Notes under the pieces: generated by a model
Told to the model about the DNA's origin: nothing
The model's database searches: none
Seen by the model: the letters and a program-made list of their open reading frames with translations, nothing else
Shown here: positions 4,399-19,902 of the stretch, piece by piece
How the letters are laid out: every line of letters starts with the position of its first letter
Numbering within the stretch: position 1 is the stretch's first letter
Made by a program: the position numbers and the translations under genes
Virus record (IMG/VR): IMGVR_UViG_3300042396_000075
DNA from: an uncultured virus (IMG/VR IMGVR_UViG_3300042396_000075)
Lineage: Duplodnaviria > Heunggongvirae > Uroviricota > Caudoviricetes
Reading direction: 5' to 3' (one strand)
DNA length: 20,000 nucleotides

Positions 4399-5155
4399 TA
4401 CTGCTGTGCTTGACGGAGACATCATTGCCTATCGTGCTGCCTTTTGGGCAGATCAAGAAGGCATTGAGTACCTTGCGGAGCGCATTGAACATGATGTCAA
4501 GGCATGGACTCCCGTAGGAGTAACGAAAGTATATGTGGCTATCTCCTGTGATCGTAAAGATAACTTTCGTAGACAAGTGTGGGAACCATATAAAGCTCAT
4601 CGGGATGTAAAGAAACAAGCACCAGATAGTTTATCATACGCTGTTGATTTAATTAAACAGAATGATATACTCTTTGTTCCTACCCTAGAGGCTGATGATA
4701 TTATGGGACTCATGGCTTCGGGTAACAAGGCTATTGCTGTGACCATTGACAAAGATCTCCGGTCTGTACCGGGGTGGCATTGGAACCCAGACAAGGAAGT
4801 TAAACCTCTGGAACTTGATACTTATACCGCTGACTTTAACTTTCACAAGCAATGGATCATGGGTGATACGACTGATAATATCCCCGGTATCTGGAAGTGG
4901 GGACCTGCCAAGGCAGAGAAGTGGCTTAAGTATGTCCATCCCCGTAACTGGACAGCCGCCGTATTGGCAGCTTATGACCAAGCTAAGCCTCAGGAAATGG
5001 ATAGATATGGATATGATTACTGTCTCGCTATGGCTAGGTGTGTACGCATCCTTAGACATGGTGAATATAACAAGAAAACTAAGTCCGTACTATTGTTTGA
5101 CCCAATAGTTGGGGCTACTAAGAGTGATACTCAAGGGAACACTAATGAACACTGA
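4376..5155 (+). CDS. T7 gp6-like 5'-3' exonuclease
   Basis: LDGDIIAY, NFR, YKAHR, LEADD, DKDL, GDTTDNIPGI..WG..KA motifs. Confidence 0.93.
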   Translation: MISQPRPDTAVLDGDIIAYRAAFWADQEGIEYLAERIEHDVKAWTPVGVTKVYVAISCDRKDNFRRQVWEPYKAHRDVKKQAPDSLSYAVDLIKQNDILFVPTLEADDIMGLMASGNKAIAVTIDKDLRSVPGWHWNPDKEVKPLELDTYTADFNFHKQWIMGDTTDNIPGIWKWGPAKAEKWLKYVHPRNWTAAVLAAYDQAKPQEMDRYGYDYCLAMARCVRILRHGEYNKKTKSVLLFDPIVGATKSDTQGNTNEH

Positions 5156-9033: not shown

Positions 9034-10647
9034 ATGGCAAACAATCTTGTTGAACGCTTCCGAATGTTAGATGCAATGCGAACATCTAAACTATACCGTG
9101 CTCGGCTATGTGCCGCACTAACTGTTCCAAGTCTTCTCCCACCTTCGGGTTGGACGGAAGAGATGGAACTACCACAGCCCACATCATCTGTTGGTGCGAG
9201 AGGTGTGACTTCATTGGCTAGCCGAATGCTATCAGCAATGATGCCATTGAATGACACACCCTTTTTTAAATTTGGTCTTCGGTCTGGTGTAGAACCAACC
9301 GCAGAAATTGGACAGTATCTTGAGACTATGAGTTATCAAGTCTATCGCAAACTTATTGGTACTAACCTAAGAGAAACAATCTTTCAAACAATACAAAATT
9401 TAATTGTAGTTGGAGATTGTTTAGTACATGAGATGGATGACTTTAAGTTTAGAGTTACTCGTCTAGATAACTATGCTGTACAGCGTACTGTTGCTGGAGA
9501 TGTCAATGAAATTATTCATATTGAATATGATCTTGTAGATCCAGAAGCAATTAGTCCTCACTTCTCTTTACCCGAATCCGCTAAGAGAGGTTACAAAAAA
9601 ACATATTGTCAATATCTCAAGGAGGACAATCTATGGAAGTACACAAAGGAAGACGGCGATGGGAACCTACTGACAAGCGGTGTCTACGAAGTATGTCCTG
9701 TGACGGTACTACGGTGGTACGGCATACCCGGAGAAAACTACGGGAGATCGCACTGCGAAGATATCCTAGGCGACCTATCAAGTCTTGATGGTTATACTAA
9801 AGCATTGCTTGATGGCATGGCAGCAGCCTCAGCCTTCTGGATGGGCATTGATCCATCTGGTATTACTGAGGTAGACGATGTTGCTGATGCACCCAATGGC
9901 TCATGGATTCCCGTGAGACAAGCAGATGTATTTGTACTGTCACCATCACAGACAATGAACCCACAGATTTCAGCCGCTCAGACCGCTGTTGAAACTATGC
10001 GTAGAGAAATTGGTCAGGCATTCTTAATGTCTGCCTCCTCACTACCAAGTGGTGACCGCGTAACTGCTACCGCTGTTCGTATGATTGGTTCTGAACTTGA
10101 GACAGTCTTAGGTGGAGCATTCAGTGCTATCGCTAGAGATCTCATGGAACCAATTGTCAAGCGATCTGTATTTTTAATGATTGAAAACGAAGAACTTGAT
10201 ACAAGAATGTATGAACAGTTCTTTGATGATGAAGGTGTATTATCTATTGAAGTAATTACTGGTCTTCAAGCCCTAAGTCGTGACACTGATTTGCAAAAGC
10301 TTATGCAGATGGGCGAGATGGTTCGCAATCTACCTGAGCAAGCAGCCGCTGCATTTAAATGGGAAGAGTATGCTAGAGCGTTGATTACTTCTCTTGGCTT
10401 TGATGCCCGTAATTGGGTACGCTCAGCTGAAGATATTCAGCAAGAGCAAATGATGATGCAACAACAACAGGCTCAGCAGCAGATGGCTCAGGCTTCCACA
10501 CAGGCAACTGCTGGAGCAATGGGTAACATCATGGCACAGGCAGGACAACAAGATCTCGCACAGAATGGTGGACAAGGTATCATGAATGTTCTTCAGAACT
10601 CTGGTGCTGACATGTCTGCATTTACAGGAGGACAACCTAATGGCTAA
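9034..10647 (+). CDS. Portal / head-to-tail connector (T7 gp8-like)
   Basis: SVGARGVTSLASRML..P...PFF, RW..IPGENYGR, RVTAT.VR....ELE..LGG motifs; 537 aa; Gln-rich C-terminus. Confidence 0.96.
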   Translation: MANNLVERFRMLDAMRTSKLYRARLCAALTVPSLLPPSGWTEEMELPQPTSSVGARGVTSLASRMLSAMMPLNDTPFFKFGLRSGVEPTAEIGQYLETMSYQVYRKLIGTNLRETIFQTIQNLIVVGDCLVHEMDDFKFRVTRLDNYAVQRTVAGDVNEIIHIEYDLVDPEAISPHFSLPESAKRGYKKTYCQYLKEDNLWKYTKEDGDGNLLTSGVYEVCPVTVLRWYGIPGENYGRSHCEDILGDLSSLDGYTKALLDGMAAASAFWMGIDPSGITEVDDVADAPNGSWIPVRQADVFVLSPSQTMNPQISAAQTAVETMRREIGQAFLMSASSLPSGDRVTATAVRMIGSELETVLGGAFSAIARDLMEPIVKRSVFLMIENEELDTRMYEQFFDDEGVLSIEVITGLQALSRDTDLQKLMQMGEMVRNLPEQAAAAFKWEEYARALITSLGFDARNWVRSAEDIQQEQMMMQQQQAQQQMAQASTQATAGAMGNIMAQAGQQDLAQNGGQGIMNVLQNSGADMSAFTGGQPNG

Positions 10648-10936
10648 GAAAGTTAATAAAGCTAGCATGTCTTGTAACAAACCCACTAAGTCTCCTAACC
10701 CGAATAAGAAACGGGTAGTAAAGGCTTGTGCTAATGGACAAGAAAAGATCATTCATTATGGGGCAGCAGGTTATGGTAACAACTATAGTCCTGAAGCTCG
10801 TAAGTCTTTCAAGGCTAGACATAAGTGTGATTCCGCAAGTAATAAACTCACTGCTAAATACTGGGCATGCAAAGACCTATGGGGTGGACCCGGTAAGTCT
10901 AAGACATCATGTCCTAAAAATAGAAAATGTAAGTAA
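10640..10936 (+). CDS. Small basic Cys-containing protein (98 aa)
   Basis: AGGAGG at 10626-10631 supports ATG 10640 rather than 10586; KIIHYGAAGY...ARKSFKARHKC...TAKYWAC..LW resembles an uncharacterised family seen in aquatic viruses. Confidence 0.75.
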   Translation: MAKKVNKASMSCNKPTKSPNPNKKRVVKACANGQEKIIHYGAAGYGNNYSPEARKSFKARHKCDSASNKLTAKYWACKDLWGGPGKSKTSCPKNRKCK

Positions 10937-17295: not shown

Positions 17296-17406
17296 ATGAA
17301 GAACCCAATGAAAAAGACTGCACCAAAGAAGGCAGTCTCCCCAATGATGGCTAAGAAAGCCGCTATGGTAGCTAAGAAGAAAACACTTAAGAAGAAGCCT
17401 TATTAA
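17296..17406 (+). CDS. 36-aa Lys/Ala/Met-rich basic peptide
   Basis: MKNPMKKTAPKKAVSPMMAKKAAMVAKKKTLKKKPY with AGAAAGG at 17279-17285; the TTG start at 17221 lies inside the previous gene. Confidence 0.7.
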   Translation: MKNPMKKTAPKKAVSPMMAKKAAMVAKKKTLKKKPY

Positions 17407-17427: not shown

Positions 17428-18357
17428 ATGAATGAAGAGACTCCCGATATGATGGAACAATCCCCTGAGACTCCAGTCATGTCTTCGGAACAATCTCTTA
17501 CATCGACTCCAGAGGATGCTCAGCTTGCTCGTGAGAAAGTAGCCTTTGATGCTTATGTAAGAAACCAAGGTATGGCTGTCCCTGAGAATTTCAAGGATGC
17601 CGGAGCTTGGTTTGAGAGTTTAAAGACTGCTCAAAAAGGATACACACAGTCACGACAAGAAGTCGCAGACCTGAAGAAGAAGTATGAAGCAACCCCGTCA
17701 ACTACTAATCCAGTTACGGGACAACCTGTGGTAGAACCTGTGAAGGAAGTAATTCCTTTGTTACCAGAGGTCTTAAAGATTCCAGAGAATAAGGTTGAAG
17801 AGGTAGCCAAGGTAGAAAACATCCCGGCATCCTCAGATGATTGGAAGCAGTGGACCATTGAGTTCACGGCTAACAATGATCTTTCGGCTGAGACATTGGA
17901 AGTCATTAAGAAGAAGACTGGTCTTCCTGATTATGTTGTTAATGAATATATGCAGGGACAGAAGGCTAAGATTGAGATGGCTTATACTAAGGCATCTGAG
18001 TTAGTTGGTGGTCGGGAAGAGTTGAGTAAACTCTTTGTCTGGGCTAGCAAAAATCTCAGTGCTGCAGAACAGGCTTCAGTCAATCAGAACCTAGCATCGG
18101 CATCTTGGGATGTAGCCCTCTATGGGCTTCAGGCTAAGTATGCTAAGACCACACAGACAAGCAAGGGTGCAGAACCCAAGCCAACCGCAAGAGGGCAGAT
18201 CCCTATTGCATCGACTCAGCAGGGTATTGTCGCTTATCAAACTAAGCGAGAGTTCTCTGCAGAGCGTAATCATCCGGGCTTTAACAACGATCCTAAGTAT
18301 CGTGCATATGTTGAGCAGCGGATGATGCGTACTAACTTTGAAAAATTACCCAAATAA
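17428..18357 (+). CDS. Capsid assembly scaffolding protein (T7 gp9-like)
   Basis: Acidic N-terminus, VPENFK, VGG.E....L..WA..NLS..E motif, C-terminal DPKYRAYVEQR; directly upstream of capsid gene. Confidence 0.9.
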   Translation: MNEETPDMMEQSPETPVMSSEQSLTSTPEDAQLAREKVAFDAYVRNQGMAVPENFKDAGAWFESLKTAQKGYTQSRQEVADLKKKYEATPSTTNPVTGQPVVEPVKEVIPLLPEVLKIPENKVEEVAKVENIPASSDDWKQWTIEFTANNDLSAETLEVIKKKTGLPDYVVNEYMQGQKAKIEMAYTKASELVGGREELSKLFVWASKNLSAAEQASVNQNLASASWDVALYGLQAKYAKTTQTSKGAEPKPTARGQIPIASTQQGIVAYQTKREFSAERNHPGFNNDPKYRAYVEQRMMRTNFEKLPK

Positions 18358-18496
18358 TCCGTAACAAGACAGCGGATCGACTGAGGTTAGCCAAAGGGTA
18401 AATCCCCCTTTATGGTAATGGATGACCCTTGGCTAAACTCACTCAACAAAAGACTCCCTTAGGAATAATCGAACGGTTGAGAACTTTTTGTCTTAC
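18357..18496 (+). ncRNA. Candidate structured cis-regulatory RNA in capsid leader
   Basis: Stems: ATCCG 18357-61/CGGAT 18373-77; TGAGGTTAGCCAAAGGGT 18382-99/ACCCTTGGCTAAACTCA 18425-41; ATCC 18402-05/GGAT 18420-23; CTCAAC 18442-47/GTTGAG 18476-81; AAGACA 18366-71/TGTCTT 18489-94. Confidence 0.65.
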
Positions 18497-18541
18497 AATT
18501 TGATATGAATGATATGATCTTTTTTAAGAAAGAATATTACA

Positions 18542-19771
18542 ATGGCTTTTAATAGTACAAATATTATTGCGGCTGATTTTACACTTCCGCGCACTGCAGT
18601 TGGAGATAATACTTCGGGTGGAAACCTTTCGCTTAATAAGCTTTGGCTCCCACTTTGGTCTGGCGAAGTAATCAATGCATATGATCAATTCAATATGTTT
18701 GAAAACATGATTACTAACAAGACTCTTACTGGTGGATACTCATGGGAATTCCCAATTACGGGTACTGTTGGTTTGAATGCATCGTGGAATGCTGGTATTG
18801 AACTTGGTGGTTTTAGTGGTACAACAAACTCATCTGCTACCACTATCAAGGTTAATCTTGATAAGCGTCCTATGGCTGCTCACTTTGAAACCGACAATGT
18901 TGACTTGCTCGTTACTCAGTGGGATTACCGCTCTGAGCTGGCTCGTCAGGCTGGACTCACCCTTGCTAATACCCGTGATCGCCAGATTGTAATGGCACTT
19001 GTAGCAGCTGGTGCATTATCAGCTCAATCACAAGATCCTCGTGGTCTTGCAGCTGCTGCATTCCATGTACCATCCCAGATTAAAAATGCAGCAACTCCTG
19101 CAAATCTTCCAGCCGCAGCTACTGATACTGAAGGACTTCTTATTCTCCAAGCAATTGAGGATTACCTCGTTGTTTGTCAGGAGAATGATGTTGCTATTGG
19201 TAGCGTCTATTGCGCTGTCACTCCAAAGGTCTTCCAAGTTATTCGTTCGCTTGGTATTCCAAGAAGCCCACTTATCAACTCCAATAGTGCTTATATTAAT
19301 ACCCCACTCTTCACTGGTAGTGATGATTACGGTGCTGGTGCTCCAATTTCACAGGGCATGAATATGATGACTGACAGCCTTGATTACATGGGTGTCAAGA
19401 TTGTTAAGACTAATCATATTCCAAAGATTGATCACTCAGCTGCTGCTAATGCAATTGGTGCTGCTAAGTATAACCTCAATACTGGCACTTTTGGTATTTA
19501 TGGTATTCTCTTCCAAGCAGAAGCAGTTGCTGGTCTTTCTCTTATGGGCATGAAGGTTGACACCGTGCAGGATGTTCGCCGCAATACTCAGTTCACCGTA
19601 GGCAGTATGCTTAAGGGTACTGGCGTAATTAAGCCTGAGATGGTCAAGCTTATTACTGCTGGTGCAACTGCAAATAGTGCTGATACTCGTGCATTAGTCC
19701 GTGGTCTATTAGCAACTACCATTGATAACTTTACTGATGGATTTGCTGCTGAATATAAGTCTACTACCTAA
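18542..19771 (+). CDS. Major capsid protein (T7 gp10-like)
   Basis: L.L.LWSGEV..AY, G.S..FP.TG, DYRSELARQAG..LA...DR motifs; follows scaffold and precedes terminator and gp11-like gene. Confidence 0.95.
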   Translation: MAFNSTNIIAADFTLPRTAVGDNTSGGNLSLNKLWLPLWSGEVINAYDQFNMFENMITNKTLTGGYSWEFPITGTVGLNASWNAGIELGGFSGTTNSSATTIKVNLDKRPMAAHFETDNVDLLVTQWDYRSELARQAGLTLANTRDRQIVMALVAAGALSAQSQDPRGLAAAAFHVPSQIKNAATPANLPAAATDTEGLLILQAIEDYLVVCQENDVAIGSVYCAVTPKVFQVIRSLGIPRSPLINSNSAYINTPLFTGSDDYGAGAPISQGMNMMTDSLDYMGVKIVKTNHIPKIDHSAAANAIGAAKYNLNTGTFGIYGILFQAEAVAGLSLMGMKVDTVQDVRRNTQFTVGSMLKGTGVIKPEMVKLITAGATANSADTRALVRGLLATTIDNFTDGFAAEYKSTT

Positions 19772-19821
19772 TGATTACTCTTCTCCTTCATAACAAGTTT
19801 CTATTATTAGTACTAGTTTGA
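19771..19821 (+). CDS. Possible 16-aa hydrophobic mini-ORF
   Basis: MITLLLHNKFLLLVLV, ATG overlaps capsid stop as TAATG; may be chance. Confidence 0.2.
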   Translation: MITLLLHNKFLLLVLV

Positions 19822-19842
19822 ATCGGAGGTGATCGTTTATCT

Positions 19843-19880
19843 ACCCCCGGCTCCCTTAAGTGGGAGTCGGTGGGTTTTTT
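19843..19880 (+). terminator. Rho-independent terminator after capsid gene (position of T7 Tphi)
   Basis: ACCC-CCGGCTCCC / loop TTAAGT / GGGAGTCGG-T-GGGT followed by a T run (19875-19880). Confidence 0.9.
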
Positions 19881-19902
19881 CTAACAACTAAAGGAGGCTA
19901 CT

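Follow-up and report, generated by a model that had tools for sequence, protein, structure and literature searches.

The head-gene region and the scaffold-capsid gap

The window (the whole stretch of DNA that was analysed, 20,000 nucleotides in length) comprises the replication-to-head region of an uncultured virus, with genes encoding a primase/helicase, DNA polymerase, exonuclease, ribonucleotide reductase, head-tail adaptor (portal), scaffold and major capsid protein, and stems from a 37 kb record estimated to be 55% complete. A T7-type RNA polymerase is encoded by all ten near-complete relatives (63-67 kb), the search having covered these relatives; one of them has, in addition to its main polymerase gene, a weaker match to the RNA polymerase family at G010:C1:2375-3475 (717-aa frame, E 5e-30). 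The capsid protein shares 22-31% identity with phage records, as judged from the 40 listed of 50 matching, and a capsid search aimed at the host found no relative among genome contigs. The scaffold stop codon directly abuts the first of three hairpins (P1, P2 and P3), which lie in the 184 nt gap between the scaffold and capsid genes (Table 1).

Table 1. Positions of the head genes and of the RNA features associated with them in the window.
Feature	Position	Strand	Basis or remark
Scaffold (head assembly) gene, 309 aa	17428-18357	+	phrog_1052 (E 4e-18), phrog_1018 (E 3e-9); ORF list
P3-motif copy 1, scaffold codons 4-12, GA-[C]-TCC-loop-GGA-[ACAA]-TC	17439-17462	+	codons fixed above background
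P3-motif copy 2, scaffold codons 14-24, GAGA-[C]-TCC-loop-GGA-[ACAA]-TCTC	17467-17497	+	
P1 hairpin, begins at scaffold stop codon	18357-18377	+	fold; relatives
Pseudoknot 5' strand AAGACA, in P1 loop	18366-18371	+	complementary to TGTCTT
P2 long hairpin	18382-18441	+	fold; anchor counts; model-fitted alignment
P2 conserved core: AA/G loop, ATCC (18402-18405):GGAT (18420-18423), CC:GG, variable apical loop	18400-18424	+	
P2 internal loop: lone C opposite TAAT	18406; 18416-18419	+	
P3 hairpin, CTCAAC/GTTGAG	18442-18481	+	family-wide operator-like unit
P3 core GA-C-TCC-CTTA-GGA-ATAA-TC	18452-18470	+	lone C18454 opposite ATAA 18465-18468
Pseudoknot 3' strand TGTCTT	18489-18494	+	pairs with P1 loop
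AU-rich spacer and ribosome-binding region	18495-18541	+	SD-like AGAAAG 18527-18532 (SD assignment inferred)
Major capsid protein gene, T7-like, 409 aa	18542-19771	+	phrog_267 (E 2e-19)
Terminator behind capsid gene	19847-19870		terminator scan

Sequence and fold agree in placing the three hairpins where the original prediction had them, and the proposed complementarity between the P1 loop and the strand following P3 was confirmed, with compensatory variants present in relatives. The gap is less completely filled than had been supposed, the hairpins stopping at 18481 and the last ~47 nt consisting of AU-rich spacer and ribosome-binding site; the lone C of the P3 core is located 88 nt before the capsid ATG. 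The perceived likeness between the P2 and P3 apices was not upheld either, the apical loops being unconserved in relatives, and the feature common to both hairpins is instead a 1x4 internal loop. The plus strand of the gap folds at z -3.19 (0/200 shuffles as good) and the minus strand at z -1.96 (8/200 shuffles as good). Among 43 diverged relatives the median z on the plus strand is -1.3, with values below -2 in 13 of them. Since fold stability is modest across relatives, the case for a leader RNA rests on covariation.

Scanning with the Rfam 15 covariance models returned no match to the leader, in keeping with the earlier view that it represents no known riboswitch or ribozyme; across the whole window (E<=5) a single chance match was returned elsewhere, and at 11 further loci (E<=2) the scan gave a tRNA and one chance match, and no leader family. 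The assertion that the element lacks a U-tract and is not a terminator was borne out in its second part only: a U-rich run does follow the interrupted P3 (18485-18494, overlapping the pseudoknot strand), whereas the terminator scan called no intrinsic terminator within the gap. One assembled contig of RNA run X1 spans 18250-18547 and continues into the capsid gene, strand, ends and single-transcript status not being readable from it. Two candidate explanations of the gap were dropped, namely stop-codon read-through into capsid, as the scaffold frame reaches a TGA eight codons on, and a fixed P2+P3 'ruler' length, as each arm is individually similar in length.

Conservation and covariation of the leader

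Two capsid scans yielded 158 loci (contigs partly repeated), 146 with enough upstream DNA for analysis; a scan with the distant capsid P0123 gave no locus, such that capsids at 37-47% identity were left out of the sample. The strict two-core pattern was present in 140 of the 146 loci, and the other six have the same loops by eye. When DNA was scanned blind with the pattern, 116 of 119 matches had a capsid gene downstream, two were unrelated, and one was truncated, yet with a scaffold gene upstream. A relaxed pattern proved too loose for metagenome contigs, 4 of 120 matches being real, all in the same context. Model R1 occurred once per genome in six of seven fetched clade genomes, as well as in the window, with none in the leader-less G006; it found 37 of the 43 leader-bearing loci (50 loci given) and 0/6 cultured loci.

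Covariation was counted in 31 representatives aligned only on invariant letters. The P2 pair a-1:e is T-A in 21, A-T in 7, G-C in 2 and unpaired in 1, the P2 pair beneath the AA/R loop is C-G in 12, A-T in 8, T-A in 7, T-G in 2 and unpaired in 2, and the outer pair of P3 is G-C in 27 and A-T in 4. In a model-fitted alignment of 37 sequences, which leans towards the structure, 9 of 13 pairs changed on both sides, compared with 4.3 in shuffles (0/500 reached 9). RNAalifold recovered only three pairs from a MAFFT alignment because the stems were out of register, and the anchor-based counts were used instead. The pseudoknot strands show compensatory variants (AAGAC/GTCTT, GAGAC/GTCTC, TGTAC/GTACA, GCGGA/TCCGC and GGGAC/GTCCC), and cognate strands paired at -5.36 kcal/mol against -3.82 kcal/mol for swapped strands. 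None of 20000 permutations did as well in the 38 of 43 representatives used, where many automatically called hairpins were not P1, and 152/20000 did so with wider windows; as the representatives are related, neither these nor the shuffle counts are probabilities. At the level of sequence comparison, these data confirm the leader as a real, conserved, covarying RNA element with a true pseudoknot or closing helix, absent from Rfam.

The conserved letters are located around the internal loops, with the apical loops varying freely. In P2 they comprise a lone C opposite YAAU above CC:GG, together with an RA/R loop, and in P3 they read RA-[C]-UC...GA-[AHAM]-UY, the bulge being ATAA in 10 of the 31 representatives, ACAA in 10, AAAA in 7, ATAC in 2 and other in 2. 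The P2-P3 junction measures 0-2 nt in 28/31 and is about 19 nt away from the P2 core and about 12 nt from the P3 core. Distant members (mostly 40-49% capsid identity) show the P3 pattern in 51/60 and the strict P2 pattern in 8/60, which indicates that P3 is a portable unit and P2 a related second site. By eye, P2 takes a P3-type C/ACAA loop in some distant members (e.g. L421, L427 and L442), lending substance to the idea that P2 and P3 may be related sites for one ligand. P1 is absent or replaced in some subgroups (L027, L082, L086 and L459), and in L027, L086 and L459 the element appears by eye to be closed by another helix. P1 and the pseudoknot are a clade-specific frame, and the portable unit is the bulged P3 hairpin. 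In L027, L074, L082 and L148, members of subgroups whose gap has no P1, the strand after P3 apparently (by eye) finds its long-range partner inside the last ~15 scaffold codons, and a translating ribosome would therefore open the long-range helix.

In most of loci L002-L026 the capsid is only 71-83% identical to that of the window, with a nearly identical leader and, where checked, a scaffold 95-99% identical, indicating that between conserved flanks the capsid gene either diversifies or is swapped.

Copies of the P3 motif at the scaffold start

The tandem pair of P3-motif copies in the first codons of the window's scaffold gene (Table 1) is also present in genomes G001, G002 and G004. In ten of ten clade genomes the strict pattern GACTC-N(1-24)-GAAHAMTC matched only the scaffold start and/or the capsid leader, with 0 matches on the minus strand. 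With a relaxed pattern, a conserved structured site was found at the scaffold translation start in 32/40 clade representatives (19/27 leader-bearing and 13/13 leader-less), the copy not being present in the remaining 8/27 leader-bearing representatives, compared with 1/137 control windows drawn from later parts of the same scaffold genes. No such copy was found in five cultured genomes that have the motif in the capsid leader (0/5).

Codon usage was assessed at 22 scaffold-start sites picked by peptide alone. All 22 have the codons ACT (background 0.35), GAA (0.68), CAA (0.53) and TCN (0.72) fixed, and the preceding GAG is used in 8/8 (background 0.32) and ACG in 11/11 (0.10). The stems enclosed by the motif covary (TCCACC/GGTGGA, TCAGCC/GGCTGA and TCAACC/GGTTGA), and several members have the copy 19-41 nt before the scaffold start codon instead of within the coding sequence. 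Since the copy can lie either in the coding sequence or in the 5' UTR, the motif is not an amino-acid constraint; rather, the fixed codons, the covarying stems and the shift across the start codon indicate that selection acts on the RNA, such that an RNA signal is written into the first codons of a protein. The original prediction of a cis element controlling capsid output is sustained as regards a conserved, covarying element tied to the capsid gene, and the scaffold-start copy, which that prediction had not included, provides strong, albeit indirect, support for the scaffold/capsid autoregulation option, whereas RNase III processing and mRNA stabilisation, proposed alongside it, explain in-frame scaffold copies poorly.

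A sister lineage without the leader

P3 is present in 95 of 126 unique capsid leaders. In the other 31 the gap measures 6-18 nt, and the scaffold stop leads straight into the Shine-Dalgarno (SD) sequence in nearly every one. Leader-less loci numbered 44/69, and all 24 unique leader-less scaffold starts keep the P3 motif. In a tree of 68 N-terminal capsid pieces, three leader-less rows group with two leader-bearing rows (support 96/98), which suggests that the leader was lost in the leader-less lineage. In this lineage, which is without the leader but has the scaffold copy, there is tight coupling between the scaffold stop and the capsid start. Leader-bearing and leader-less sister lineages constitute a natural pair.

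The ribosome-binding region and a possible anti-SD helix

GGA, mostly as GGAG, is present in the ribosome-binding region of 42/43 representatives, the window type being the exception. The capsid-leader P3 does not overlap the ribosome-binding site; in about half the clade, an alternative helix between the P3 5' strand and the SD sequence is possible. Cognate anti-SD pairs beat partner swaps, with 51-61/20000 after thinning (61/20000 at 29 representatives; control region 19178/20000), and the helix is favoured in 19/43 pseudoknot-free ensembles, the window not being among them. Support by position is confined to one column, with Fisher p values of 0.12-0.49 after thinning, and in 16 cultured leaders the pairing is without support (4597/20000 swaps).

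A possible anti-SD alternative, taken with the pseudoknotted multi-stem fold and the invariant internal-loop bases, is reminiscent of a self-cleaving ribozyme or a small-molecule riboswitch. However, beyond the lack of an Rfam match, the minimal hairpin stands alone at scaffold starts, without P1, P2 or pseudoknot, the unequal distances of the P2 and P3 cores from their junction disfavour docking, and a capsid gene offers no metabolic logic, all of which renders such an identity most improbable.

Reach into cultured T7-like phages

The same bulged hairpin precedes the capsid start by 68-108 nt in 17 of 24 cultured or GenBank Autographiviridae (0.21 expected from shuffles), a count obtained from phages that were no random sample and with a detector that was loosened after the sequences had been seen, the first version having returned 5/24. 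The count includes WH11-B (L593:426-531), in which the annotated capsid start at 531 looks too far downstream; the start was moved to the first in-frame ATG (426), placing the motif at -108. The carriers are phages of Pelagibacter, Prochlorococcus, Synechococcus, roseobacters, Rhizobium, Ralstonia and Pseudomonas, and their hairpins are usually tipped UNCG or UGAG, while among the 24 examined the motif is absent from the capsid leaders of T7, phi15, phiITL-1, SVOphi44, Cd1, Paku and YIMV22061. The cultured-type detector matched 1/120 coding windows; the loosened version finds only 17/43 clade leaders, with 2-7 matches per clade genome on the plus strand. A single detector match in T7 (L611:6802), just upstream of the Tphi terminator, is at about the background rate and is probably due to chance.

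Since the detector was tuned after sight and is weak on clade leaders, a blind scan with one 19-letter form of the motif provides the better evidence. This gave at least 120 matches, and a T7-like capsid gene lies downstream in 116 of the 120 listed, three of the other four being near the end of the available DNA. Among the matches listed, the motif C is at a median of -88 to the capsid start (89 of the 116 loci, with start assigned). When a control bulge was substituted in this hairpin, the scan gave four matches, with 0 upstream of a capsid gene. In several cultured phages, BOESR1, CRP-804 and TRX32-1 among them, the motif-bearing leader does not follow a scaffold gene, and this, together with the 0/5 scaffold copies, limits the logic of a shared operator to the clade. 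By eye, L582, L584, L588, L596, L597, L602 and L603 have a second hairpin, which frequently contains a bulged A, at a distance of 30-45 nt on the upstream side of the C/AHAM hairpin; it is a possible analogue of P2.

The occurrence of the same motif across phages of diverse hosts, at a near-constant distance to the start codon, would suit a host factor, such as the 30S subunit, S1 or some other protein that binds RNA, which enhances or adjusts translation of the two head proteins made in the greatest amounts. However, 185,579 GTDB genomes contain no true copy of the one, narrow, clade-type pattern searched (two matches were judged chance), and a stable hairpin at +13 to +45 would be expected to hinder initiation, and a host factor accordingly appears rather improbable.

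Promoters and the transcriptional context

A 13-14-nt repeat, ATAGTTGGGGCTAC (window 5105-5118), is present in four copies in the record, on the coding strand only, with similar copies in relatives; it resembles a T7/SP6-type promoter and is a probable promoter for the phage RNA polymerase. The copy at 5105 is the nearest and last found before the head module, 13 kb upstream. Within 1.2 kb of the capsid start, no putative-promoter copy was found in ten genomes (best matrix score <=6.1 vs 20-38 for seed copies), the matrix fitting G007, G008 and G010 poorly, where a diverged promoter is possible. The T7 and phi15 records, conversely, annotate a phage promoter just before the capsid gene. The leader shares with the T7 phi10 promoter/leader its genomic position and the need to over-produce capsid, but differs in that T7 is without the motif and the clade without a promoter copy at the capsid gene.

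The absence of the motif from the two phages with an annotated promoter, the distance of the nearest putative promoter and the terminator behind the capsid gene would fit a processing or stabilising signal, in which a cut by a host or phage nuclease at or close to the hairpin, or a pseudoknot that blocks 5'-3' decay, yields a stable capsid message extending to the terminator, as a functional stand-in for the T7 phi10 promoter. The distance from motif to ATG resembles that of a transcript 5' end, and P2 is, by the general requirement, long enough for RNase III, the T7 sites for which are single long hairpins. Set against this, copies occur both before the SD sequence and inside the scaffold coding sequence, such that one cut would have opposite outcomes, and the short scaffold copies have no long stems. 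Moreover, LUZ100 carries the bulged hairpin as well as a local promoter, phi7, about 600 nt upstream (PMC10134795). Processing or stabilisation is credible but unlikely.

Action at the level of transcription, as a put-like antiterminator, pause site, weak attenuator (P3 with the U-rich run) or second class of promoter, was also considered. The two abutting hairpins resemble HK022 put in having adjacent stems, and the two locations match those of T7 phi9 and phi10; unlike put, the leader is 13 kb from the nearest putative promoter. Variable spacer length and covarying stems argue against a fixed double-stranded DNA site, copies downstream of a start codon cannot be the promoter of that gene, and a different repeated motif looks like the phage promoter. 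In addition, the leader-less lineage retains structured elements behind the capsid gene. A transcriptional role therefore seems improbable.

A proposed translational operator shared by two head genes

In the clade the hairpin occurs at only two head genes, and at the scaffold gene it can fall before or after the start codon, a pattern best read as the mark of one translation-acting factor. The hairpin is probably a signal to which a protein binds, keeping the output of the two main head proteins in balance, and, judging from the distribution and form of the motif, it could well be an operator that acts on translation and has a head protein, probably free scaffold, as its reader, in the manner of P22. 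The 8/27 leader-bearing representatives with no copy at the scaffold start, and the existence of a whole lineage that manages without the leader, speak against such an operator.

Such an operator would sit on the long late transcript and act in cis. The unit would be a hairpin in which a lone C faces an A-rich bulge of 4 nt (R-[C]-stem-loop-stem-[AHAM]-Y). A single trans-acting factor would read it, most likely one of the head proteins of the phage; unassembled scaffold is the most logical candidate, because an excess of scaffold would be expected to slow its own synthesis. Occupation of the site at the scaffold start (+13 to +45 or -41 to -19) would hinder ribosome loading, and free scaffold would thereby limit its own production. 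The capsid gene, uncoupled by a 150-200-nt gap and lacking a promoter of its own, would carry its own site or sites, P3 and the related P2, which P1 and the pseudoknot would hold apart from the ribosome-binding site. As bound P3 cannot form the helix with the SD sequence, activation is the likeliest direction of effect on capsid, and spare scaffold would then turn scaffold synthesis down and capsid synthesis up.

Granted an operator, scaffold is somewhat favoured as the ligand, capsid is an unlikely one, a small basic phage protein is slightly less likely again, and any other ligand would be a surprise. With respect to capsid, the chances of activation are roughly even, repression is rather doubtful, and a decoy or localisation role is more doubtful still. 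Small lysine-rich ORFs are located just before the scaffold gene (window 17296-17406) and after the portal gene (10586-10936), and similar lysine-rich peptides are present just before scaffold in 6/10 genomes in the stretch examined; these small proteins are candidate RNA-binding ligands.

The wider proposition of an operator common to the Autographiviridae, in which unassembled scaffold represses its own gene and activates capsid translation in place of the T7 capsid promoter, is possible but on balance unlikely. If true, RNA feedback would set head-protein stoichiometry, with the window leader an elaborated two-site, pseudoknotted form. Many T7-like phages are without a promoter copy at the capsid gene. 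The motif is a small, defined, mutable RNA signal, located in one clade at precisely the two head genes; in cultured cyanophages, pelagiphages, roseophages and other phages it precedes the capsid gene. Head-gene balance thereby becomes open to direct testing, for which a hairpin of ~25 nt, purified head proteins and phage-host pairs already in culture would suffice.

Relationship to described elements

The balance between scaffold and capsid is known in outline, through autoregulation in P22 and separate promoters in T7; Wyckoff and Casjens are said to have reported, in 1985, autoregulation of the P22 scaffolding protein (gene 8). P22 scaffold is likewise implicated in translational autoregulation in a more recent source (10.1101/2022.12.13.520362). 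As with P22 gene 8, a structured site at the scaffold start could let free scaffold limit its own synthesis in the clade. Unlike P22, the clade is of T7-like phages with a defined covarying motif, and its capsid leader holds a further site set within a pseudoknotted frame.

T4 gene 43 and the MS2 coat hairpin are autogenous operators, with recognition of a bulged hairpin. The T4 gene 32 pseudoknot is a further autogenous phage operator, and resembles the leader in being a pseudoknot upstream of an AU-rich stretch and ribosome-binding site (PMC10690425). In contrast to gene 32, gene 43 and MS2, the pseudoknot of the leader closes around two long hairpins, conservation resides in the letters of the 1x4 internal loops, and the P3 motif tags two different genes; in contrast to gene 32, the gene downstream is that for the major capsid protein rather than a single-strand-binding repressor. 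The leader is, by its sequence features, an uncatalogued element, probably of the phage translational-operator type.

The C-loop motif, which is known from rRNA and from the thrS operator bound by ThrRS, is defined by two crossing non-canonical base triples and has an asymmetric loop in which a (C/U/A)-A-(A/C) triplet precedes a U-A pair. The clade P3 is similar in sequence, with an asymmetric loop, triplet and U-A pair, although the pair above would be an A-C mismatch in P3, and the pair below is usually G-C in cultured copies.

Fremin et al. 2023 (PMC10690425) list five unnamed candidate RNAs upstream of PHA00201 capsid genes (DNAVirus_231, 3706, 3823, 3864 and 5397). Like the leader, these come from aquatic IMG/VR phages and precede the PHA00201 major capsid domain; they are 43-80 nt long and are listed as lying within 25 nt of the start, as opposed to 68-108 nt for the P3-type core. 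What is available of that description gives no mechanism or scaffold-start copy, and the supplementary files searched contain 0 motif matches, although the cultured-type hairpin may be among, or overlap, the candidates. A literature search, with most subscription papers outside its reach, found no description of a P3-type motif. New here are the scaffold-start copies, the reach into cultured Autographiviridae, the leader-less sister lineage and the absence of a promoter copy nearby.

A second conserved element behind the capsid gene

A second conserved element, at window 19769-19882, comprises tandem stops, an imperfect hairpin, then ATCTA and then the terminator. The 3' arm of the hairpin carries GGAGGTGATC (19825-19834), the complement of the 16S rRNA 3' tail, with no start codon behind it. 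The element may act as a ribosome trap, stabiliser or terminator modulator. It is present in 33/35 distinct downstream sequences, and by eye its GTGATC-N3-6-ATCT core is also present in the leader-less lineage.
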